47,994 nt of DNA from a virus, in IMG/VR virus record IMGVR_UViG_3300045988_098207; one strand, given 5' to 3'. The position numbers and the translations under genes were made by a program. Position 1 is the stretch's first letter. Each line of letters opens with the position of its first letter. The notes under the pieces are model-generated. The model saw nothing but the letters and a program-made list of their open reading frames with translations, made no database searches and was not told where the DNA came from. Positions 1,171 through 37,529 of this stretch are shown here, one piece after another.

Positions 1171-1295
1171 CTCTCTGTTTCAGGAGTGAGGGGCGGGCGG
1201 TTCAGACTGTCAGCCTCTCTACTCTTTGAAAAATGGCGGTAACTCATTCTAAAGCCCCACAAAGCGTTTTGAAGTGATTACCTTATAAGCATACC

Positions 1296-1342
1296 ACAGA
1301 GAAAAGTAAACGCCGTGTGCGTCAAATTCGCAAAAAATAACT
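1296..1342 (+). promoter_or_regulatory. Intergenic repeat element, partial copy (3' box only), 16 nt upstream of the fibre gene start
   Basis: agagaaaagtaaacgccgtgtgcgtcaaattcgcaaaaaataact closely matches 37035-37080 and the 3' boxes at 21507-21539, 24441-24475 and complement(29922-29954). Confidence 0.6.
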
Positions 1343-14754: not shown

Positions 14755-16128
14755 ATGATACAGTTACGTTCAAATCAGGTTGAGCCGATAGAAAAGGCTA
14801 TCAGTTTCTTTCAAGAGAAGAAGCCGAAGCCCTCTTTGATTGTTCTCCCGACAGCATGGGGAAAATCAATTCTGACAGCCTTTGTCGCGAAGAACACGAA
14901 CGATAAAATGATTGTTCTTCAACCCTCAAAAGAGTTGTTGGAACAGAACTATTTGAAGTATGTGAACCTCTGTGACGGGTTCGCAAATGCGGGTATATAC
15001 AGCGCAAGTTTCGGGAGCAAGGAAATCGCTCAGATAACCTACGCCACGATAGGTTCAATCAAGACGCTCGGGGCGAAGTTCAAGGCTCTCGGCTTCACAA
15101 AAATGCTGATAGACGAGGCACACCTCTTCCCCCGTGAGGCTGACAGCATGCTCGGCACGTTTCTCAAAGAGAGCGGCATCACTCACGTTCTCGGCATAAC
15201 GGCGACACCTGTCAAGCTGCAGACGGGCAGAGACCAATTCGGACAGAATTATTCAAAGCTCGTCATGCTGACATCAAGAAGCAAAAAGGGAAATTTCTTC
15301 AAAGACATTATTCATGTCGGTCAGGTCTCAGAAATGGTGCGCCTCGGCTTTTGGTCTCCCCTGACTTATGAGGCTTCACAGTTTGACAATAGCCAACTTG
15401 TCTTCAACAGTTCAAAAAGCGAGTACACGGAGGACAGCGTTCAAAGGGCTTTTGAAGAGAACGGCGGCACACAGACGATTGTCAACGCTCTTGACGCTCA
15501 CCCTGAACGGCAGCACATTCTCGCCTTTGCCCCCTCAGTTCAGGACGCTATCAGCCTCTCAGAGCGTTATCCGAACTCGGCTGTCATATACGGCGATATG
15601 GATAAGCGTGAGAGGGCTTCAATCATTGAGCGTTTCAGAAAGGGCGAAATACGGGTCATATTTAACGTAAGAGTGCTTTCAACGGGCTTTGACTATACAG
15701 GTATCGATTGCATTGTTTTAGGCGTTTCTACGGCTTCTATCGCCCTCTATTATCAAATCATCGGACGAGCCACCCGTATTGACCCTCAGAAGAAAGACGC
15801 TCTGATAGTTGACCTCGGCGGCAACGTTCAGCGTTTCGGGCGTGTTGAAGACCTGACCTTTGAGAAAGGCAGAATGTGGCGTTTGTTCGGTTCAGGCGGG
15901 CGGCTGCTCTCAGGCATACCAATCGCAGACATCGGTCAGTACACCCGTGAGGACACTCAGGCTATTGACGCTCAGGCGGCGCAGCCTATTCAGGTTATGC
16001 CTTTCGGCAAATATAAGGGGGAAAAGATAAGCAACATACCTCTTGACTACCGCAAATGGATGATACGGGCTTTTGAGTGGAACAGCCGAAACGTGAAACT
16101 GAAAAAATCAATCATGGCAACCCTTTAA
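14755..16128 (+). CDS. Superfamily-2 DEAD/DEAH-box helicase
   Basis: Motif I LPTAWGKS, motif II LIDEAH, motif III TATP, motif VI QIIGRATR. C-terminal MPFGKYKGEKISNIPLDYRKWM module. ATG 14755 preferred over 14662. Confidence 0.85.
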   Translation: MIQLRSNQVEPIEKAISFFQEKKPKPSLIVLPTAWGKSILTAFVAKNTNDKMIVLQPSKELLEQNYLKYVNLCDGFANAGIYSASFGSKEIAQITYATIGSIKTLGAKFKALGFTKMLIDEAHLFPREADSMLGTFLKESGITHVLGITATPVKLQTGRDQFGQNYSKLVMLTSRSKKGNFFKDIIHVGQVSEMVRLGFWSPLTYEASQFDNSQLVFNSSKSEYTEDSVQRAFEENGGTQTIVNALDAHPERQHILAFAPSVQDAISLSERYPNSAVIYGDMDKRERASIIERFRKGEIRVIFNVRVLSTGFDYTGIDCIVLGVSTASIALYYQIIGRATRIDPQKKDALIVDLGGNVQRFGRVEDLTFEKGRMWRLFGSGGRLLSGIPIADIGQYTREDTQAIDAQAAQPIQVMPFGKYKGEKISNIPLDYRKWMIRAFEWNSRNVKLKKSIMATL

Positions 16129-16141
16129 TCAAGACAACATT

Positions 16142-17128
16142 ATGGCAAGACCAAAACGAACGACAGTTGATTATTACCCGCATTATGTGAAATGCGGGCG
16201 CACGATCTACATTCTTGAAGCCCGCTTCGGGAATGACGGTTATGCTTTTTGGTTCAAGGTTCTTGAAGTTCTCGGGGAGAGCGAGGGGCATTTCTATGAC
16301 TGTTCTGTTTCTTCAAATTGGGAGTATCTTCTTGCAAAGACACGGGTCAACGCTCAGACGGCGACAGAAATAATCGGGGTTCTTATCAACCTCGGGAAAA
16401 TTGATGCAGAGCTATGGGAAAAGAACCGTGTTATTTGGATAGAGAATTTTGTCAACAACCTCACAGAGGTTTACAGAACCCGCCGAACGGAATTGCCTCA
16501 AAAGCCTGTTTTCAAAGAAGAAAAACAACAGCCTGAAAAGGTTATCTCCGAGAAAACCCCTGATAAAGAGCCGTTAAAAGAGATAAAACCCGCCAAAGGA
16601 GAGAAGAGTAAAGGAGAGGAGAGCAAAGAGAAATATCCTTATCAGGATATAGTCGCCATGTGGAACTCTGTCTGTCTCTCATGCCCAAAGGTTCTCAAAG
16701 TCACAGAGGCGAGAAAACAGAAAATGAAGACCCGCTTTCAAGAGTTCGGCGTGAAGCGTGAAGAACTGACAGATTACGTGATGCGCCTTTTTCAGCGTGT
16801 TCAGGCTTCTGACTTTCTCACGGGGCGCAGCACTGACAAAATGGGTTGGGTTGCAAATTTTGATTGGGTCTTTGAGAATGAGAAAAACTGGGTCAAGGTC
16901 TCTGAGGGCAACTACGACAACAAGAGGGGCGGCGGCTCAAACACGGCACAGAAGCCCGTACAAGCCGCTGACGGCTCTCAGGTTCAGTTGGGCGTTGGAG
17001 AATACATAGACGGCTCAGGGCGGCGTACATACGGCACGGGGCGGGCTAATATCCCAATGACGGCAGCACCCCGCCCGTCTGAGCGTTATTCATGGGACGC
17101 TGCTTCACATACATGGATTTTGCAATGA
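16142..17128 (+). CDS. Replication initiation / DnaD-like protein (DUF4373-type N-terminus)
   Basis: ..DYYPHYVKCGRTIYILEARFGNDGYAFWFKVLEVLGESEGHFYD.. Position between the helicase and primase genes. Confidence 0.55.
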   Translation: MARPKRTTVDYYPHYVKCGRTIYILEARFGNDGYAFWFKVLEVLGESEGHFYDCSVSSNWEYLLAKTRVNAQTATEIIGVLINLGKIDAELWEKNRVIWIENFVNNLTEVYRTRRTELPQKPVFKEEKQQPEKVISEKTPDKEPLKEIKPAKGEKSKGEESKEKYPYQDIVAMWNSVCLSCPKVLKVTEARKQKMKTRFQEFGVKREELTDYVMRLFQRVQASDFLTGRSTDKMGWVANFDWVFENEKNWVKVSEGNYDNKRGGGSNTAQKPVQAADGSQVQLGVGEYIDGSGRRTYGTGRANIPMTAAPRPSERYSWDAASHTWILQ

Positions 17129-19150: not shown

Positions 19151-19702
19151 ATGGAAAGTAAAAAAGAATTTGACAGCCTGAAAGACAAACTGAAAAAGTT
19201 AAAGGCTCTCGCAGAAAGAGGCTGCGGAGGAGAGGCAGAAAACGCACAGAGGCTCTTAGAGCGTCTCTGTGCCGCTAACGGCATTGACTTGGAATTACTT
19301 AACGATGAAGAAAAGAAAAGCCGTTATACGTTCAATATCGGGCGTAATCGGGTCTTTATAACTCTGTTCACGCAATGTTACTGCAAGGTCACAGATAGCT
19401 CGAAAATGAGTTACAGACAAGAATCCCGCTCTGAAATCTCTCTTGAACTCACTCAGGTTGACTATGCAGAATTGAAAGGGCTGTATGAATGGCATAAGGC
19501 AAATTTTGAAAAAGAACTTGAAGACATCAAAAAGACAATTATTCATGCTTATTGCCAAAAGCACAGACTTTATCCTGAAAGCCCCTCTGAGACCTCAAAC
19601 GACAAGCCCCTGACAGAAGAGGATTTGGAAATGCTCAGAAAGGTTATGAAAATGGAGGGGCTTCTTAACGACAAGACTTATCAACACTTAATCGAAGAAT
19701 GA
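19151..19702 (+). CDS. Hypothetical protein, DUF2786-like N-terminus (183 aa)
   Basis: ..KLKKLKALAERGCGGEAENAQRLLERLCAANGIDL.. Confidence 0.4.
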   Translation: MESKKEFDSLKDKLKKLKALAERGCGGEAENAQRLLERLCAANGIDLELLNDEEKKSRYTFNIGRNRVFITLFTQCYCKVTDSSKMSYRQESRSEISLELTQVDYAELKGLYEWHKANFEKELEDIKKTIIHAYCQKHRLYPESPSETSNDKPLTEEDLEMLRKVMKMEGLLNDKTYQHLIEE

Positions 19703-21356: not shown

Positions 21357-21406
21357 TAATCATCAGGCGGGCGCAGCCTCTTCTGAGACTGACAGAATTT
21401 CAAGGG

Positions 21407-21431
21407 CGGGGAGTTAAATCCCCGTTCTTTT
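21407..21431 (+). terminator. Rho-independent terminator after the early/replication block
   Basis: cgggga-gttaaa-tccccg stem-loop followed by ttctttt. Confidence 0.6.
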
Positions 21432-21441
21432 GTCCCAAAAG

Positions 21442-21539
21442 CCGATTGCGCCCCCACAAAAGACTTTCCAATGACGAGTGATAAATTACAGCAATCAACA
21501 AAGAAAAGCCGACAGCGGTCAAATTCGCCAAAATTAACT
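21442..21539 (+). promoter_or_regulatory. Intergenic repeat element, partial copy (short 5' box ccgattgcg plus 3' box)
   Basis: 3' box aagccgacagcggtcaaattcgccaaaattaact ends 3 nt before GTG 21543. Confidence 0.5.
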
Positions 21540-21542
21540 GAC

Positions 21543-21857
21543 GTGTTCACGACCATTTGTAAGACCGACCTCCATGTTGTGTGTGTTAAAGAGTTCAAGT
21601 TCCACCCCGTCAGGAAATGGCGTTTTGATTATGCCATACCTGACCACAAAATCGCCCTTGAAGTTGAGGGCGGCGTATGGACGGGCGGGCGGCACACCTC
21701 TTCTGTCGGCTTTATGAAAGACATGGAGAAATACAATACGGCTACCCTCATGGGGTGGCGGGTGTTCAGAACAACGCCTGACGAGCTGTACCGCTTGAAG
21801 ACCCTGAACTTGCTCAAAACGGCAATTTCAGGCGTTTTTGACCCCGAAAAGGCTTGA
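21543..21857 (+). CDS. PD-(D/E)XK endonuclease (Vsr/DUF559-like); start uncertain (GTG 21543 or ATG 21471)
   Basis: ..RFDYAIPDHKIALEVEGGVWTGGRHTSSVGFMKDMEKYNTATLMGWRVFRTTPDEL.. The upstream part of the track ORF overlaps the conserved repeat element. Confidence 0.55.
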   Translation: MFTTICKTDLHVVCVKEFKFHPVRKWRFDYAIPDHKIALEVEGGVWTGGRHTSSVGFMKDMEKYNTATLMGWRVFRTTPDELYRLKTLNLLKTAISGVFDPEKA

Positions 21858-24375: not shown

Positions 24376-24378
24376 GCC

Positions 24379-24475
24379 CGATTGCGGCTCTCTGTCGGCG
24401 TAAGTATTCTGAGTGGTTCACTTATCCCATTCAAAAGCGTACCGCCGACATACTCAAAATTCGGAGAAAATAACT
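24379..24475 (+). promoter_or_regulatory. Intergenic repeat element, full copy (5' box, variable core, 3' box) abutting the terL start codon
   Basis: 5' box cgattgcggctctctgtcggcg (24379-24400) and 3' box accgccgacatactcaaaattcggagaaaataact (24441-24475). tgtcggcg/cgccgaca form an 8-bp stem closing a 40-nt core. Confidence 0.65.
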
Positions 24476-26071
24476 ATGGCAAAGAAACAACGGAAAGAAA
24501 CTATCAAGAAACTCAGTTTTGAGGTCATAAACTCATGGCGGGCAGATTGGAATAAATTTGTCCGTGAAGCCTTTGGCGTGAACCTTGACCCCGAGCAGCA
24601 AGAAATTCTGTCAAGCGTTCAACACAACAGGCGCACGTCCGTTGCCTCAGGCACAGCCCGTGGCAAAGACTTTGTCGCCGCTTGTGCCGCCATATCGTTT
24701 CTTTATCTCACGCCCCGTTGGAGGCGCACAAAGAACGGGGGCGCAGAGTTGGTTGAGAACACGAAAGTGGCTCTGACAGCCCCGACCGACCGTCAGGTAA
24801 AGAACATCATGATGCCTGAGATTAGCCGCCTTTACAACAGAGCCAAGGCAAGAGGCATACAACTGCCAGGGCGTTTGAACGCTTATGACATCAGAACAGA
24901 AAGCGATGAATGGTTTCTGACGGGCTTCAAGGCTGACGAGAACAACCATGAAGCGTGGTCAGGCTTTCACGCCGTTCATACAATGTTTGTCGTTACCGAG
25001 GCAACGGGTATCGGCGATGATACGTTTGGGGCTATTGAGGGTAACTTGCAAGGCGACTCACGCATCTTGATTGTCTTCAACCCGAACACAACAGTTGGCT
25101 ACGCTGCCCGCTCTCAGAAAGGAGACCGTTGGCACAAATACCGCCTGAACAGTCTGACAGCCCCGAACATCGTTCAGAAAAAGACCGTCATTGCGGGTCA
25201 GGTTGACTATGAGTGGGTTCAAGACAAGTTGGCGAACTGGTGTACTGAAATCAGAGAAGAAGAAGCCACGGCAGAGTTTGACGATTTTCAGTTTGAGGGC
25301 AAGTGGTATCGCCCCGAAGACCTTTTCAGAAAGAAAGTCTTGGGTAAATTCCCCAAGGTGGGCGAAGACGTTCTTATCCCTGAACAGTGGTTGGAAATCG
25401 CACATCAGCGTTGGAAAGAGGCTCACGGGCGGCAACCCGTCTCAACAGAGCCACGGATCATGGGCGTTGACGTTGCAGGCATGGGACGAGACTGCACTTG
25501 TTTTGTTGAGCGTCAGGGCTGTTGGGCTTCTGAGTTCAAGACACACAACAGCGGCGGCTCGGCTGACCACATGAAGATTGCGGGGGCTATCACAGACCGC
25601 CGCCGACATGAGATTGAAATGTATGTCAGCATTGACACAATCGGCGAGGGTGCGGGCGTGTTCTCCCGTTGTGTTGAGAATGAACGGCGTGAGAACTCTC
25701 ATTACATCATCAGTTGCAAATACTCAGAGGGAGCGAAAGGCTTCAACGGCAAGAACCTGACCGACACAACGGGTCAGTATGAGTTCCTGAACATGAGGGC
25801 GTACCTCTTTTGGGCTGTGCGTGATTGGCTGAACCCGAAGAACGAGACGGGTGCCATGCTGCCGCCTGACCCTCAGTTTGATGAAGAGGCGACAGAAATA
25901 AAATGGTCTTTCAGGTCAGACGGGCGCATATACATTGAGCCGAAAGAAGACATCAAGAAGAGACTCGGGCGAAGCCCCGATAAGTTTGACGCTTTCGCGA
26001 ACACGTTCTATCCGCTCAGAGGAAGCCGCCGCATTGACCTGAACCGTATCGCCCGTATGGTACACAGATAA
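24476..26071 (+). CDS. terL: Terminase large subunit
   Basis: Walker A VASGTARGKDF, Walker B MFVVTEA, nuclease-domain acidic motifs GVDVAGMGRD and SIDTIGEG. ATG 24476 preferred over the track start 24413, which lies in the repeat element. Confidence 0.9.
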   Translation: MAKKQRKETIKKLSFEVINSWRADWNKFVREAFGVNLDPEQQEILSSVQHNRRTSVASGTARGKDFVAACAAISFLYLTPRWRRTKNGGAELVENTKVALTAPTDRQVKNIMMPEISRLYNRAKARGIQLPGRLNAYDIRTESDEWFLTGFKADENNHEAWSGFHAVHTMFVVTEATGIGDDTFGAIEGNLQGDSRILIVFNPNTTVGYAARSQKGDRWHKYRLNSLTAPNIVQKKTVIAGQVDYEWVQDKLANWCTEIREEEATAEFDDFQFEGKWYRPEDLFRKKVLGKFPKVGEDVLIPEQWLEIAHQRWKEAHGRQPVSTEPRIMGVDVAGMGRDCTCFVERQGCWASEFKTHNSGGSADHMKIAGAITDRRRHEIEMYVSIDTIGEGAGVFSRCVENERRENSHYIISCKYSEGAKGFNGKNLTDTTGQYEFLNMRAYLFWAVRDWLNPKNETGAMLPPDPQFDEEATEIKWSFRSDGRIYIEPKEDIKKRLGRSPDKFDAFANTFYPLRGSRRIDLNRIARMVHR

Positions 26072-27500: not shown

Positions 27501-27725
27501 ATGGCACCAACAAGAAGACCCCCGAACAGAAAGAAGCCTGAGCAGCCGAAATACCGCTGCCGTGACTGCCGTCACAGTTATGATTGGCACAGCAAGGCTC
27601 TTGACGGTCATTTGATTTTGTGCCGCTGCCCTCATGATGAAAAGACAGAACACGGGCGGTGGTGCAAATTTCTGAATGACTTTCAATGTGATAAATTTAT
27701 TCTGAGAGACAATGGCACTCAATAA
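27501..27725 (+). CDS. Small Cys/His-rich zinc-ribbon protein (74 aa)
   Basis: CRDCRH..H..CRCPH..C..C pattern. Confidence 0.45.
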   Translation: MAPTRRPPNRKKPEQPKYRCRDCRHSYDWHSKALDGHLILCRCPHDEKTEHGRWCKFLNDFQCDKFILRDNGTQ

Positions 27726-29646
27726 ATACGACAAACAACATCTGCGCAACCTGACAGCCTACGAGCGTCAGGTTGACGCTATATACAGGGCGGCGGTCAA
27801 GGAAGCCGCTGCCCTTGGGCTTTCTATCCGTGATTTAGACCCGACACGGCTCTTTTCTTTCTCTGACTATCCAATTACACGCAAAAGGCTCGAAAGTCTC
27901 TTAGAGAGCCTAAAAAGCGGGTTGTCGGCTGTCATAGTGAACGGCGTGAACCATGAATGGACGCTCGCCAACAACAAGAACAACGAGCTGTGCCGTCAGG
28001 TCTTCGGCGATAACGTGGGCAAGCTCTCAAACGCCCAATATCGCCGATATTTCAAGAACAACGAAGAAGCCCGTGACGCATTTCTCGCCCGCAAGGTTCA
28101 GGGCTTGAACCTCTCTGACAGAGTTTGGAAATATACAAATCAGTTCAAAGAGGAAATCGAACTCGGGCTTGACATCGGTCTGAGAAGCGGCAAGGCGGCT
28201 GAACGTCTTCAAAAAGACTTGCAACTGTTTCTTCAACACCCTGACATGCTCTTTCGCCGTGTCAGGGACGAACACGGGCAGTTGGTCTTGTCAAAGCGTG
28301 CGGCGGCTTTCCACCCTGGGCGTGGCGTGTACCGAAGCTCATATAAGAACGCCCGCCGCCTCGCAGCCACAGAGACGAACATCGCATATCGGTCGGCTGA
28401 CTTTGCCCGTTGGCAAGACCTTGACTTTGTTGTCGGCATTCGTGTTGTTATGAGCAATAACCACACACTTTTAGGGGCTGACGGGAAGCCGCACAAGTTT
28501 ACAGACATCTGCGATGAACTGAGCGCACCCGTGGGCAGTAAGGCTGTCAAGGGTCAGGGCTGTTACCCAAAGGACTTCAAGTTCACGGGGTGGCACCCTC
28601 ATTGCCGCTGTCACGCTGAAACAATTTTGAAGACAGAGGAAGAAATGATGCGTGACAACGAAAGGCTGCTCAAAGGCGAAGAACCTCTGAAAGAAAGCGT
28701 GAACACGGTCACGGACGTACCTCAGGAGTTCAAAGATTGGTTAGACGATAACAAAGAACGTGTCAAGTACGTTTCCTCTGTGCCTTATTTCATCAGCGAC
28801 AACGCAAAGTACATACCCAAGAGTTTTATCAACAACATCGGAACACTGAAAGCGGGGCTGTCAGAGGTTCAGGCGGTCAACGTCAAAGAAGCCCTCCTGA
28901 AAATCAAAGACCCAACCTTTGTGACAGAAAAAGAAGTGAAAACAGCCCTGACAGATTTCGCCACGGCTAACCAATCACTCTTCAACGGCGGTTTGGCTAA
29001 AATTGAGATAACAAGAAAGAAGAGTGCAACGGCATTCATGGCGAACAGAAGATATTATACAAAAGACGGGGCTTTTGATAAGAAAAGCGGCAACACGTTG
29101 GTAATAACAAACAAAGATTTAACTATTACCTCAGGTGTCGTTTTCAACCCTCTTCACGAAGTCAAAGGGGCGATGAAAGCAATCACAGAGAAAACGGCTC
29201 TCACGTTCAATCAAGAATATGCCCTTGAAAGTGTGTGGCATGAGTTCAGGCACGCTGCTGCAGTCGGATGGAAAAACGTGAACATGAAAACGCCCGTTTT
29301 GATAAATTCAATGGAGGTTATAAATCAATTCTGCGCCCGTCTCTCTTATCCGAGTTTCATCAGAGGACTTGGCGGCAAAGCCTCTCACGCCAAAAAAATT
29401 ATGGAGAAAGGCTATGGTTACGGGCGGCGGGTCTCGAACTTCTGTACGCTTCTGAAACAGATGAAAGTCAGTCAAAAGTCAGCATACAGACATTTTCAAG
29501 ACCTGATAATAAAGTCGCCGTATGAAGACATTCACGGCGAATTGGTAAGGTTTGTTGAGTTGAGAGGCAAATACGACAAGAAGAAAGCCGAAGACATTGT
29601 TTGTGGTCTTGGCTTTCTTCCTGACGCTTTTAAGGCTCTTTTGTGA
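27712..29646 (+). CDS. Head morphogenesis protein (MuF / SPP1 gp7 family) with an extra C-terminal domain containing HExxH
   Basis: MuF hallmark ..FTGWHPHCRCHAETIL.. The C-terminal ~240 aa contain ..ESVWHEFRHAAA.. (HEFRH at nt 29239-29253). Confidence 0.75.
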   Translation: MALNKYDKQHLRNLTAYERQVDAIYRAAVKEAAALGLSIRDLDPTRLFSFSDYPITRKRLESLLESLKSGLSAVIVNGVNHEWTLANNKNNELCRQVFGDNVGKLSNAQYRRYFKNNEEARDAFLARKVQGLNLSDRVWKYTNQFKEEIELGLDIGLRSGKAAERLQKDLQLFLQHPDMLFRRVRDEHGQLVLSKRAAAFHPGRGVYRSSYKNARRLAATETNIAYRSADFARWQDLDFVVGIRVVMSNNHTLLGADGKPHKFTDICDELSAPVGSKAVKGQGCYPKDFKFTGWHPHCRCHAETILKTEEEMMRDNERLLKGEEPLKESVNTVTDVPQEFKDWLDDNKERVKYVSSVPYFISDNAKYIPKSFINNIGTLKAGLSEVQAVNVKEALLKIKDPTFVTEKEVKTALTDFATANQSLFNGGLAKIEITRKKSATAFMANRRYYTKDGAFDKKSGNTLVITNKDLTITSGVVFNPLHEVKGAMKAITEKTALTFNQEYALESVWHEFRHAAAVGWKNVNMKTPVLINSMEVINQFCARLSYPSFIRGLGGKASHAKKIMEKGYGYGRRVSNFCTLLKQMKVSQKSAYRHFQDLIIKSPYEDIHGELVRFVELRGKYDKKKAEDIVCGLGFLPDAFKALL

Positions 29647-29650
29647 GTTC

Positions 29651-29872
29651 TTACGGGTGTGTAAGTGTTCTCCACAAATCATTCTTGACATCGGGCGGCA
29701 GTTCTTCTGAAAGGGCTGTTGCCCGTTCTTTGTCGCCCCTGAGATAAAACAGGGTTACGATGTCCGCTTTTGCCGTGTCAGGATCAACAGAAGACAAATA
29801 AGTTTCTTTTGTCATTCCCTTAATTTTTGCCCATTCCTCAGGGCTGATTTTATAGTCAAAAACAGTTTTCAT
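29651..29872 (-). CDS. Hypothetical protein (73 aa), last gene of the opposite-strand island
   Basis: ATG ORF preceded (minus orientation) by a -7 box, a full repeat element and a second repeat motif. Confidence 0.5.
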   Translation of the reverse strand: MKTVFDYKISPEEWAKIKGMTKETYLSSVDPDTAKADIVTLFYLRGDKERATALSEELPPDVKNDLWRTLTHP

Positions 29873-29921: not shown

Positions 29922-30019
29922 AAGTTATTTTTCTCGAATTTGACGCACACGGGCTTTGGTTTTCTCTTTGGTGTAATTATTCACTTAGAAAATTATCGCC
30001 CGACAGAGAGCCGCAATCG
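29922..30019 (-). promoter_or_regulatory. Intergenic repeat element, full copy on the minus strand
   Basis: The reverse complement reads cgattgcggctctctgtcggg..(45 nt)..gcccgtgtgcgtcaaattcgagaaaaataactt. The stem cgggc/gcccg covaries with cggcg/cgccg of the 24379 copy. Confidence 0.65.
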
Positions 30020-30070
30020 CCTTTTGAACCTGAAATCGAAACTAAGTTCTGATTTTATCAAGTCACGGGG

Positions 30071-30078
30071 CAAAGATA
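30071..30078 (-). promoter_or_regulatory. -7 promoter box TAtcTTTG (minus strand) upstream of the repeat element and gene 29651-29872
   Basis: caaagata on the plus strand. This places the repeat element inside the predicted 5' leader. Confidence 0.4.
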
Positions 30079-30225
30079 AGCCCTTTTACTGAGATAACGG
30101 TAAAAAGCCCGATTTATTGTCTCGGTGGGTCGAAAACGGGCGTTCAGGCTGCAAGCGCAGTTATGCTAAAACCTGAAATAAGCCCGATTTGCCCGTTTTT
30201 AGCCCCTCTGACGGCTTTTCTCTCG

Positions 30226-30549
30226 TCATTGGTGTAATTTATCATCTGACGGGTCAAAACACGCTGTACGGGCTTTATTTTGCCTTTTCGTGTGAAGCGG
30301 CTCACGGGTCACGGTTGTTTTCGCCCCCGTGTATGGGTTGCCGTCTGAAACGCCGATGTTCCAAAGGCGGCTGACCTTGCACCCGATTTGTTCAGGGCTG
30401 AAACGCTCATAGATAGCCGAAAGAGACGTGAAGAAGAAATACCGTTTCCCCGTCTGTTCGGGCGGCTCTCTGAATGTCACTCGGTAGATGAACCCGCAGC
30501 GGGCTTTGTCTTTCTCTTCCCCGCCTGTTGTCTGTCTGTTGTCTGTCAT
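30226..30549 (-). CDS. Hypothetical protein (107 aa), resembles small proteins of Bacteroidales mobile elements
   Basis: ..FIYRVTFREPPEQTGKRYFFFTSLSAIYERFSPEQIGCKVSRLWN.. Family resemblance is from memory only. Confidence 0.5.
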   Translation of the reverse strand: MTDNRQTTGGEEKDKARCGFIYRVTFREPPEQTGKRYFFFTSLSAIYERFSPEQIGCKVSRLWNIGVSDGNPYTGAKTTVTREPLHTKRQNKARTACFDPSDDKLHQ

Positions 30550-31289: not shown

Positions 31290-31324
31290 GCCCGTCAGGG
31301 GCTTTCTGCGGCTCTCTGACGGGC
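31290..31324. repeat. Hairpin (9-bp stem gcccgtcag / ctgacgggc) whose loop and arm contain a copy of the 5'-box core tgcggctctctgacggg
   Basis: 31307-31323 match the 5' box of the intergenic repeat at 16 of 17 positions, here on the plus strand. Confidence 0.5.
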
Positions 31325-32762: not shown

Positions 32763-32885
32763 TTATTGAATATTCGATAAAAACTCTTCTGCCTCTTCAA
32801 AGAGTTCATCAGGGGTCAGGCTCTCAGAGCTTGGCTCGAAGCCTGAGAGATAAGCCGCCTCTATGATCGTGCTTCTTTCACTCAT
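32763..32885 (-). CDS. Small acidic ORF (40 aa), uncertain
   Basis: [40 protein letters not shown]. The ATG overlaps the stop codon of the MutS-I gene. Confidence 0.3.
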
Positions 32886-33157
32886 TGCGCTGCCCTCCCC
32901 TGTTTGAGTTCATCACAAATGGCGATACGGTGTCCCGCTCTTATCAGTCTCGGCAGATATGTGTCAAGGGCGTGATACGGGAAGCCCGCCTGACGGTCGC
33001 CCGCCTTGTCTCTTGTCAGGGTTATGCCGAGTATGCGTGATGCGCTCTCTGCGTCTTCCTGATAACTCTCATAGAAATCCCCGCATCTGAATAACAGCAG
33101 AGTGTCGGGGTGCATCTCTTTCAGTTTTGTGAACTGTTTCTTTTTTGCTTCTGTCAT
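32882..33157 (-). CDS. Stand-alone MutS domain I (mismatch-binding N-terminal domain) protein, 91 aa
   Basis: [83 protein letters not shown] matches the MutS N-terminus, including the GDFYE (Phe-x-Glu) region. Nothing beyond domain I is present. Confidence 0.7.
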
Positions 33158-33179
33158 AATTCTGACCTCCTGTTTCTGA

Positions 33180-33440
33180 TTATTTGTAGTAGAAAGAAAA
33201 CTTGATACCTCTGCGGAGCTTGCAGACACAAACATCGTCCATGCATGCAAATGCTCTCTTCAAAAGTTTGTTCAGCATCTCAACGCCGATGAGAGCTATC
33301 GCTCCCGCAACGCCTACGAGCTTATGAACCTTGCGTCCCTGAGCGTCAACGCCGCTTACCTTGATGCGGAAGTTTCTGTTGATGTCCTTTGAACTGTAAA
33401 CGAGACCGTTCTTGTTATTGTTTGTTGAGACCTTAATCAT
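33180..33440 (-). CDS. Hypothetical protein (86 aa)
   Basis: ORF in the island. No motif recognised. Confidence 0.45.
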
Positions 33441-36655: not shown

Positions 36656-36981
36656 TAATAACCAACGGAACAATCGAAGTGAAGAGAAAGATGGCGGGCG
36701 GCATTGACCCTGAAACGGGTTTCCCCGTCAAGTCTTCTGAGGTCTCTTGGGGTAGCCCGATAGACTGTCAGTACACGGCAAACAAGTACAACAAGCTCGG
36801 CAAGGTCAATGGGGAACACTTCACGGTGGCGCAGTATTCAATTCTGATTGAAGAACAGCCGCTCGGGGAGTTTGACCAAATCAGGCTTACAGACAGTTTG
36901 ACGGGAAAGAGCCTCGGGGAGTTTTCTGTCATTCAGGTTGAGCCGTTGGAAGCCGTATGCGAATTGAGAATAATGGTCTAA
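36652..36981 (+). CDS. Head closure / head-tail adaptor candidate (109 aa)
   Basis: ATGA-coupled to the upstream gene. Position and size typical of the class. Confidence 0.4.
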   Translation: MIITNGTIEVKRKMAGGIDPETGFPVKSSEVSWGSPIDCQYTANKYNKLGKVNGEHFTVAQYSILIEEQPLGEFDQIRLTDSLTGKSLGEFSVIQVEPLEAVCELRIMV

Positions 36982-36984
36982 CGG

Positions 36985-37080
36985 CGATTGCGGCTCTATG
37001 TCGGCTTTACTTTTTCTGTGCTTATAATCCACCATGAAAAAGAGTAAACGCCACATACGTCAAATTCGCCAAAAATAACT
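36985..37080 (+). promoter_or_regulatory. Intergenic repeat element, full copy, ending 8 nt before ATG 37089
   Basis: 5' box cgattgcggctctatgtcggc (36985-37005) and 3' box acgccacatacgtcaaattcgccaaaaataact (37048-37080). The two halves fold into a long irregular hairpin (atgt-ggc-tttac-tttttc / gaaaaa-gtaaa-gcc-acat). Confidence 0.65.
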
Positions 37081-37088
37081 CAGAAACT

Positions 37089-37529
37089 ATGCCAATAAGA
37101 CAACTTACCCCCATGTCTGAGATTGACCGATACACAGAACAGGAGTTGAAAAGGCTTCAAACGGTTCTGATAAGGTCTTTGCAGTACTGCGGGGAACAGG
37201 TTCTGAATAAAGCCCGTTCGACCAATTCATATAAAGACCAAACGGGCAACCTGAGAAGTTCACTCGGCTATGTCGTTGCCGTGGACGGACGGGTTGTTTA
37301 TCAGTCAGACTTTCAGACCGTGAAACAGGGGCGGGACGGTTCAGAGAAAGGCGCAGCGTTCGCGAAGAAACTTGTCAGGCGTTTCCCTCACGGGGTCTGC
37401 CTGATAGTTGTTGCGGGAATGGAATACGCCGCTCACGTCAAGAACAAAGGCTACGATGTGCTTGACAGTTCAGAACTGCTTGCAGACAGAATTGTGCCGA
37501 GTATGCTGAAACAGCTTGGCTTCACTTAA
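37089..37529 (+). CDS. HK97 gp10-like tail-completion / neck protein
   Basis: ..KDQTGNLRSSLGYVV.. motif typical of the gp10 family, plus position. Confidence 0.55.
   Translation: MPIRQLTPMSEIDRYTEQELKRLQTVLIRSLQYCGEQVLNKARSTNSYKDQTGNLRSSLGYVVAVDGRVVYQSDFQTVKQGRDGSEKGAAFAKKLVRRFPHGVCLIVVAGMEYAAHVKNKGYDVLDSSELLADRIVPSMLKQLGFT

Follow-up and report, generated by a model that had tools for sequence, protein, structure and literature searches.

The 47,994-nucleotide (nt) viral DNA stretch IMGVR_UViG_3300045988_098207 (hereafter the window, meaning the whole stretch at its full length) carries an element of about 90 nt that recurs upstream of several of its genes, among them a copy at positions 36,985 to 37,080. 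We find that it belongs to a genuine and conserved family of cis-elements in gut Bacteroidales prophages, one that has apparently not been described before. Members of the family occupy the same five gene junctions in related phages, point in the same direction as the gene that follows, evolve under purifying selection, and in two of the five junction types show covariation between the arms of a predicted hairpin. Tentatively, we read the element as part of the transcript, either a leader or a module between cistrons, which prepares late genes for translation initiation and may also take part in the processing of their mRNA.

The repetition, described in an earlier note on this DNA, exceeds chance in pattern counts over the window. 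Exact matches to the 5' box CGATTGCGGCTCTNTGTCGG lie at 24379-24398 (+), 36985-37004 (+) and 30019-30000 (-), where chance predicts 0.01 matches, and the 3' box GTCAAATTCGNNAAAAATAACT is found, one mismatch being allowed, at 1321-1342, 21518-21539 and 37059-37080 on the plus strand and at 29944-29923 on the minus strand (chance expectation 0.00), with a degenerate 3' box before terL at 24454-24475. Searched with a nucleotide profile (nhmmer), the window contains five full-length copies and a sixth that is truncated at its 3' end, and a 12-mer taken from the 5' box lies at one further place:

Copy a, 21439-21539 (+): before the gene for a Vsr-like endonuclease; nhmmer model positions 1-93.
Copy b, 24376-24475 (+): occupies the whole terS-terL spacer, up to the terL ATG at 24476.
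Copy c, 29922-30022 (-): upstream of a 73-amino-acid (aa) open reading frame (ORF) with its ATG at 29872; the 49-nt gap holds a small hairpin.
Copy d, 36982-37080 (+): between a stop codon at 36981 and an ATG at 37089; the strongest hairpin of all copies.
Copy e, 1250-1342 (+): before a 1462-aa tail-fibre-like gene with its ATG at 1359, at a gap of 16 nt; nhmmer model positions 6-93.
Truncated sixth copy, 30204-30273 (-): model positions 4-73; overlaps the end of a 107-aa ORF at 30226-30549.
12-mer TGCGGCTCTCTG, 31307-31318 (+): equal to the core of the 5' box; within a hairpin between two minus-strand genes.

The copies at 1296 and 21442, previously described as partial, are therefore full-length by profile. 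The distances reported for the set were accurate, since copies b and d begin 3 nt past the upstream stop codon and the gap from element to downstream ATG is 0, 8, 16 or 49 nt across the non-nuclease copies. That each copy ends before a start codon is true of b, c, d and e; the ATG of copy a, at 21471, lies inside the element. The core of the 5' box noted at 31307 is non-random as a 12-mer (three matches against 0.01 expected), and as a family member it was rejected because it spans only 12 nt, is not matched by nhmmer, runs opposite to the flanking genes and sits inside another hairpin.

When IMG/VR was scanned with either box, 31 stretches were obtained with each, from approximately 20 closely related contigs. 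An iterated nucleotide profile, seeded with the five window copies and applied to 80 loci that surround homologues of terL, converged on 123 matches, 78 of them unique; this profile hidden Markov model together with pair counts replaced the covariance model that had been proposed. All of the approximately 120 matches are oriented with the downstream gene, the minus-strand copy included. In the family alignment the element measures about 88-93 nt with few indels and can be divided into six blocks. Block A, at the 5' end, reads (t)AGCCCC or GCGCCCC and is followed by a variable 5' arm and then by the T-rich block B. Block C is apical, AT-rich and conserved, (G/T)ATAAnTTACACCA; block D is GAAAAGnAAA; block E is GCCGACAGACGGCGAAT, with an invariant AAT in it and about 7 variable nt after it; and block F, at the 3' end, is AAAATAAC(T), in which AAATAA is (nearly) invariant. 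The best-conserved parts are the loop and the 3' tail, which lie outside the predicted stem. Two details of the earlier note have to be corrected here: the core said to be conserved in length only contains block C, and the boxA-like GCTCT is confined to the 5' box of the window's lineage, the family consensus at this place being AGCCCC. Short patterns gave less: a scan of viral contigs with TTCGNNAAAAATAACT was non-specific, and the exact 3' box had one match in reference genomes, at chance level.

The profile search places the element at orthologous junctions in related genomes, the same five being occupied in hundreds of related phage contigs and in prophages of Prevotella and Bacteroides. 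Type a stands past the terminator of the early operon and ahead of the small nuclease gene, type b fills the terS-terL spacer of about 100 nt with its 3' end 0-13 nt before the terL ATG, and type c is found on the other strand about 5.3 kb past the start of terL and is followed by an ORF of 60-87 aa. Type d precedes the orthologue of gene 37089 in about 60 of the 80 relatives, down to 60% protein identity, and type e precedes the tail-fibre-like gene, with orthologous copies in relatives. This synteny, together with the co-orientation, supports the view already taken in the earlier note, that of a conserved, orientation-locked regulatory element tied to start codons.

Close relatives nevertheless differ in presence and absence of the element, and the junctions without it are informative. 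In phages lacking b or d the stop and start codons overlap (TAAATG, TGATATG), from which it follows that the flanking genes are co-transcribed and that the element lies inside operons. Some phages without d or e carry instead an AGGAGG box 6-9 nt before the ATG of the 37089 or tail-fibre orthologue (loci L255, L377, L381-L383 and L387), which is odd for phages of Bacteroidia, whose hosts' ribosomes reportedly disregard the Shine-Dalgarno (SD) sequence. Such SD-like boxes are found in none of 78 distinct element-bearing upstream regions compared with 6 of about 19 element-less orthologues. The heptamer AAATAAC is also found just before several early-gene starts.

Three features flank the copies on their upstream side:

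Intrinsic terminator, 21402-21432 (+): an 11-bp stem followed by UUCUUUUG; closes the early/replication operon a few nt before copy a.
Strong stem-loop, 1178-1231 (+): directly upstream of copy e; the fold of 1171-1256 has -31.6 kcal/mol, z -2.8.
Host-type -7 box TAtcTTTG, 30071-30078 (-): about 50 nt upstream of copy c.

A hairpin with a T-rich stretch is found ahead of copy a in 8 of 9 relatives examined, and relatives have a canonical terminator at the position of the stem-loop upstream of copy e. The TAtcTTTG box reported at 30078-30071 (-) is present, and, as also reported, the sense strand has no TAnnTTTG box near the other copies. On the far side of copy c, a terminator-like hairpin of 15 pairs (29692-29725) lies where the head-morphogenesis gene converges with the 73-aa ORF of the minus strand; it falls inside this ORF, so the reality and extent of the ORF are uncertain. 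ORFs of 60-87 aa come after copy c in relatives.

Conservation of the element exceeds that of neighbouring DNA under weak constraint. The identity of type-d elements to their orthologues is 0.53-0.76, compared with 0.37-0.48 at third codon positions of the adjacent gene, and we conclude that purifying selection acts on the element. Orthologues are on average more alike than paralogues, some paralogues being very close (c/e 86%, d/e 80%). Copies of one genome have lineage-specific variants in common, GTCAAATTCG and CGATTGCGGCTCT in the window and CGGCGAAT and TCAGCCCGAAT in contig 087449, which suggests partial gene conversion or co-evolution with a factor.

The two halves of the element are predicted to pair with each other. 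Folding of single sequences from the window gave a long imperfect hairpin for b (z -2.5) and d (z -3.0 to -4.7) and no such signal for copies a, c and e; in copy e the 5' arm CACAAAGCG is predicted to pair with CGCCGTGTG. The predicted stems of b, d and e comprise about 25-30 bp with internal loops and lie between cistrons. As bulges shift the register of the stem between orthologues, alignment-free tests were used, in which the folding energy of cognate 5' and 3' halves was compared with that of halves swapped among orthologues. For type d (n = 17, below 90% identity) the mean folding z was -3.06 and cognate halves folded with -22.8 kcal/mol compared with -17.7 kcal/mol for swapped ones, none of 20,000 permutations being as good (p < 5e-5). 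Type e (n = 18) had a mean z of -1.77 and a partner-swap p of 5e-5. The signal is type-specific: over the whole family the same test gave p = 0.24, so the covariation formerly read from the terL copy and the minus-strand copy does not hold family-wide and is significant only in copies of the 37089 and tail-fibre types. Likewise, support for the pairing of the 5' with the 3' box is statistical for d and the tail-fibre copies, weak for the terL copy and absent for a and c, and compensatory changes are seen in types d and e.

A three-helix structure proposed by hand was scored on 14 diverse d and e elements aligned with MAFFT by sequence alone, the same sequences from which it had been derived, and in this setting 71% of cells can pair compared with 63% in shuffled alignments (0 of 500 as good) and 33-51% with slid partners, 11 of the 22 pairs are changed on both sides, and the covariation score is 0.219 compared with 0.128 for shuffles and 0.05-0.14 for slid partners. 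In the proposed structure the base of the stem is formed by block A and the G-rich end of block E, block B pairs with block D, block C is apical, and AAATTCG..AAAATAACT is unpaired before the start codon. Natural variation adds to this. In the terL copy, the 22 bp at the apex (24411-24432) match the reverse complement of the version in relatives L172/L173 (around 9940-9961) at 21 of 22 positions, and the inversion, typical of template switching in a quasi-palindrome, leaves the stem of the terL copy unchanged. The inverted lineage is widespread, and the inversion supports the stem.

Copy a differs from the other copies in that it overlaps a gene:

Vsr-like (PD-(D/E)xK) endonuclease gene, 21471-21857 (+): 128 aa; start inside copy a, within block C.

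The frame that begins at the conserved ATG of type a is open through blocks D-F into the conserved endonuclease core, and in three relatives the ATG matching 21471 is the sole possible start codon. Starting there extends the alignment with PHROG_503 to residues 6-124 and raises its score from 127 to 133 bits, and public gene calls for nuclease homologues give proteins of 124-131 aa with a variable basic tail ...KKSRQ..N..K(I/L)(R/T)DVFT. The GTG at 21543, previously taken as the start of this gene, is therefore wrong. The first third of copy a is thus leader, and the remaining two thirds, including what looked like a 3' box, are codons for the basic N-terminal tail. The other copies are non-coding, with no conserved start codon, third positions that are not relaxed and a variable gap to the real ATG. 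Either a noncoding leader may have come first and been captured by the nuclease gene, or the 5' end of the nuclease gene may have been duplicated. Two coding explanations for the other copies were rejected. A leader peptide, in a frame reading KRxxRRIRxK and ending at the invariant TAA, has no consistent start codon and no codon periodicity, conservation by codon position in the element being 1.05/1.07/0.91; and an N-terminal extension of terL, for which the frame is open in some copies, is at odds with the gap of 0-13 nt and the lack of a conserved start. Separately, a sequence resembling blocks D-E, AAAAGAAAAGCCGTTATACGTTCAATA, is found at 19311-19337 (+) inside a DUF2786 gene at a borderline score, possibly by chance; in frame it encodes KKSRYTFN, which resembles the nuclease tail KKSRQTAN.

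As stated at the outset, our tentative reading is that of a module acting at the level of RNA. It would be co-transcribed with the late genes and act in cis on their mRNA. In the intercistronic copies, before terL, gene 37089 and the tail-fibre gene, the 5' and 3' halves would form an imperfect hairpin of about 85 nt, with the base of its stem just before AAATTCG and the invariant A-rich tail (A)AAATAAC(T) left single-stranded 0-16 nt before the start codon. The hairpin would sequester G+C-rich upstream sequence and may itself be a nuclease processing or stabilising site, while the exposed tail would provide the SD-independent ribosome landing region needed in Bacteroidota; a factor from phage or host may in addition recognise the conserved apical block and the tail. 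We favour this reading because the element is sited in operons directly after stop codons, its orientation is locked to the gene, its arms show compensatory changes, the flip of its apex is tolerated, its A-rich tail stands by start codons, AAATAAC also precedes early genes, and SD-like boxes appear where it is missing. Three points in this are inferred: transcription of the element into RNA, an influence on translation or processing, and a factor that acts in trans. In Bacteroidetes, translation initiation relies on adenines upstream of the start and on low structure (PMC6847099), and two further papers likewise describe initiation in Bacteroidota as dependent on these features, not on SD pairing (PMC7797042, PMC13000453). 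The predicted accessibility of tail and start codon is 0.66 with the native 5' arm compared with 0.61 with a shuffled arm (higher in 33 of 39 cases, p = 2e-5). Of the four roles proposed in the earlier note, the start-associated translational signal and the processing site would fit best, and the nut/put reading is unsupported.

Several results weigh against an RNA-level module. The gain in accessibility is small and disappears when the comparison is with plain deletion of the 5' arm, and a distance from tail to ATG of 0-49 nt is loose for a translation signal. The hairpin is not general: type b (n = 11) has a mean z of -1.30 and a non-significant partner swap (p = 0.17), and types a (n = 8, mean z -0.74) and c (n = 8, mean z -0.65) are likewise non-significant in this test. 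RNAalifold on the MAFFT family alignment returned just a 4-bp mini-hairpin, GCCG-N5-CGGC, of -1.6 kcal/mol, which is often absent, and nothing for type d alone; this failure we attribute to the register shifts mentioned above. Sense and antisense strands fold equally well, so G-U usage does not distinguish RNA from DNA pairing. Copies a and e directly follow terminators, a promoter-like arrangement. Finally, the conserved primary sequence of loop and tail can be explained only by a trans-acting factor, and none was identified. A more far-reaching version of the reading would make the element a portable SD-independent expression cassette, composed of a clamp hairpin and an A-rich landing sequence, served by a dedicated RNA-binding factor of phage or host in a post-transcriptional late regulon, sharing its origin with the 5' end of the nuclease gene and kept similar among the copies of a genome; as a whole we regard this as improbable.

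The promoter-like arrangement of copies a and e, which is kept in relatives, also speaks for control at the level of DNA, by a non-canonical late promoter or an activator or repressor (stoperator-like) site at each late transcription unit, an explanation we consider the main rival but rather unlikely. The copies do mark where functional late modules begin, the conservation of primary sequence blocks needs no pairing, the AT-rich block is similar to TATAAT/TATAAG, candidate early DNA-binding proteins are encoded (HTH_17, a winged helix-turn-helix protein and a weak Mor-like match; early helix-turn-helix genes lie at 10086-10301, 11186-11479 and 11395-11715), and the lineage variants, GTCAAATTCG in the window and CGGCGAAT elsewhere, could mean co-evolution with such a factor. 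However, copy a has its ATG within the AT-rich block and is coding in the blocks further downstream, so any transcription start must be upstream of the conserved 3' module; and relatives without e have only a terminator, about 35 nt, AGGAGG and the ATG, which leaves no room for a promoter, so that late transcription evidently crosses such terminators. No -33 TTTG/-7 TAnnTTTG is present on the sense strand of any copy, the only matches in a Bacteroidota promoter scan of the copies being the reverse complement of the A-rich tail in two of them, and the promoter layouts tried (sigma-70-like, extracytoplasmic-function-like and Bacteroidota -33/-7) gave nothing consistent among copies. A search of the window proteins against Pfam and PHROGs detected no phage sigma factor or RNA polymerase gene, and a weight-matrix scan with blocks D-E found no convincing site in the early control region 9943-10086. 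Moreover, the arms covary instead of being conserved half-sites, and a thriving lineage has the apical block of its terL copy inverted. The apparent passage of late transcription through terminators would fit a nut/put-like processive antitermination signal in RNA, for which one could also cite the GCCG-N5-CGGC hairpin as the sole RNAalifold consensus and the GCTCT core in the window's 5' box. The family at large, however, does not conserve GCTCT, the small hairpin has little stability and is missing from many members, the terminators nearest to copies a and e are upstream and not downstream of them, five sites across the late genes are the wrong placement for nut/put, and Rfam has no match; this is the least probable explanation considered.

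If the stem is taken as the functional part, the element could be purely a processing or stabilising hairpin for RNase III or another endonuclease, similar to the R sites of phage T7 and with no direct role in translation. The predicted stems between cistrons, the several copies of related sequence per genome and the tolerated apical inversion are all as expected, but conservation is best outside the stem, in the loop and the 3' tail, types a and c have no stem, the tail is always near a start codon and element-less relatives have an SD-like box in its place, and we therefore hold this explanation to be unlikely. Less likely still is a largely neutral or selfish repeat, in which duplicates of the nuclease-gene 5' end (leader plus about 24 codons) were spread by recombination or by mobility of the nuclease gene. 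Such an origin would account for the homology of the coding 5' end in copy a to the other copies, the frame kept up to the terL ATG in several type-b copies, the variable presence among closely related phages, the palindromic architecture and the very similar paralogues (c/e, d/e). It does not account for the single orientation, for five syntenic positions in phages whose neighbouring proteins are just 60-80% identical, for conservation well above synonymous sites, for a stem maintained by compensatory changes, or for orthologues that are overall closer than paralogues.

The window itself is one complete phage genome, about 47.9 kb long and either terminally redundant or assembled as a circle, since its first 55 bases recur exactly at its end (1-55 and 47940-47994). 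Its genes include one for a CI-like repressor, with divergent promoters of host type near 9983 and 10024, a rightward replication operon, terL, and genes for an SPP1-type portal, a head-morphogenesis protein that contains a Bxa-like domain, the major capsid and tape-measure proteins, the 1462-aa tail-fibre-like protein and an amidase. Megablast against cultured phages gave zero matches, and the closest terL among them is only 29% identical. Relatives with terL 60-80% identical are found integrated in Prevotella (candidate carriers of a relative include the chromosomes OZ006989 and OZ006992), Bacteroidaceae and Muribaculaceae, on chromosomes or contigs, and P0092, a homologue of the window's nuclease, is annotated in Bacteroides ovatus, so the phage is a member of a large clade of temperate Bacteroidales siphophages. 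ARAGORN found no tRNA or tmRNA in the window, and the element has no tRNA-like cloverleaf. Among further observations on the genome, the Vsr-like protein at 21471-21857 would be a mismatch endonuclease, the Bxa-like ADP-ribosyltransferase region belongs to the head-morphogenesis protein at 27712-29646, a stand-alone MutS domain I protein is encoded at 32882-33250 (-), and a 75-nt direct repeat of 91% identity is found at 246-320 and 13129-13203, 12.9 kb apart and in or near small ORFs. A second junction motif, (A/G)GTTTAAC(A/C)AA(A)TAAA, precedes the ATG of many genes by about 20 nt, for example upstream of 19151, 19741, 20587, 26103, 34613, 38076 and 31549 (-), with a short gap to the preceding gene at some of these sites (e.g. 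26103, 34613, 38076).

A c4-2 RNA (Rfam RF02944) is found at 14652-14732 (+) upstream of the helicase gene, with 49.4 bits against a threshold of 41, and the helicase probably starts at the ATG at 14756, not at 14662. The second loop of this RNA, GCUGUUAU, is exactly complementary to AUAACAGC at 12679-12686 and 13299-13306, before the starts at 12691 and 13310, a complementarity that suggests antisense control similar to that by c4 of phage P1. The same RNA is present in relative L176 (363-440). As a trans partner of the element it was rejected, the complementarity between them being merely 5 nt.

The interest of the element lies partly in its hosts. Bacteroidota are the dominant Gram-negative phylum of the human gut, with unusual promoters and ribosomes that ignore the SD sequence, and the control of phage late genes in them is almost unknown. 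The element offers a compact, conserved, multi-copy handle, placed before terminase, tail and tail-fibre genes in a large clade of gut prophages, and as such it is a sequence-defined candidate for post-transcriptional or, alternatively, transcriptional control of late genes. It may also serve as a gene-expression part for the engineering of Bacteroides and as an annotation marker for late operons and start codons, as with the corrected start of the nuclease gene.

Compared with known systems, the element shares single properties with several. The nut (boxA/boxB) sites of lambda and the put sites of HK022 are cis-acting RNA signals of temperate phages with a small hairpin; the element differs in having no conserved boxA (CGCTCTTTA-like), an unfitting placement, no identified N-like factor and no counterpart in Rfam, which gave no match to the element at the gathering threshold in the window, none at E up to 10 for 36960-37110 and none in relatives. 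Stoperators of cluster A mycobacteriophages (L5, Bxb1) are asymmetric repressor sites of 13-14 bp, related to the operator of the early promoter, and like them the element forms oriented copies near gene boundaries of a temperate phage that follow the direction of transcription; its unit is, however, about 95 nt, and the early control region holds no related motif. The bacterial intergenic repeats ERIC, REP/BIME and (in Neisseria) Correia are found in either orientation and in many copies, at sites that are not syntenic; they fold in mRNA and can alter its stability or be cut by RNase III. With these the element has in common an imperfect palindrome of about 100 nt, an intergenic location and loci that differ in presence and absence, but unlike them, and unlike a miniature inverted-repeat transposable element, it is locked in orientation, confined to five syntenic junctions and tied to start codons. 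The R sites of T7 are several related hairpins of tens of bp with internal loops, between cistrons and often before the next initiation region. Intercistronic hairpins with internal loops are predicted for types b, d and e and not for a and c; in the element the sequence of loop and 3' tail is conserved, two of five types are stemless and one copy overlaps coding sequence.

The closest analogue is the start-associated sequence (SAS) of cluster K mycobacteriophages with its extended form (ESAS), a motif upstream of starts in one orientation, with imperfect inverted repeats in a subset and of unknown function (PMC3203893, PMC12699233). The SAS is the 13-mer GGGATAGGAGCCC, which includes an SD-like core, and the two arms of an ESAS, 17 bp long, follow a conserved consensus and stand 4-13 bp apart (PMC3203893, PMC12699233). 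With at most two mismatches the SAS has one match in the window, at 17043-17055 (-) inside a gene, which is at chance level (0.43 expected). The arms of our element are longer than those of the ESAS, stand about 40 nt apart around a conserved apical block, and are variable and covarying; its host phylum mostly ignores the SD sequence, and each genome has merely 5-6 copies. Given the different sequence, dimensions, covarying arms and translation system of the host, we conclude that the element is not a member of the SAS/ESAS group, with which it nevertheless shares its single orientation, its link to start codons, its conservation at orthologous genes and its occasional complete absence.

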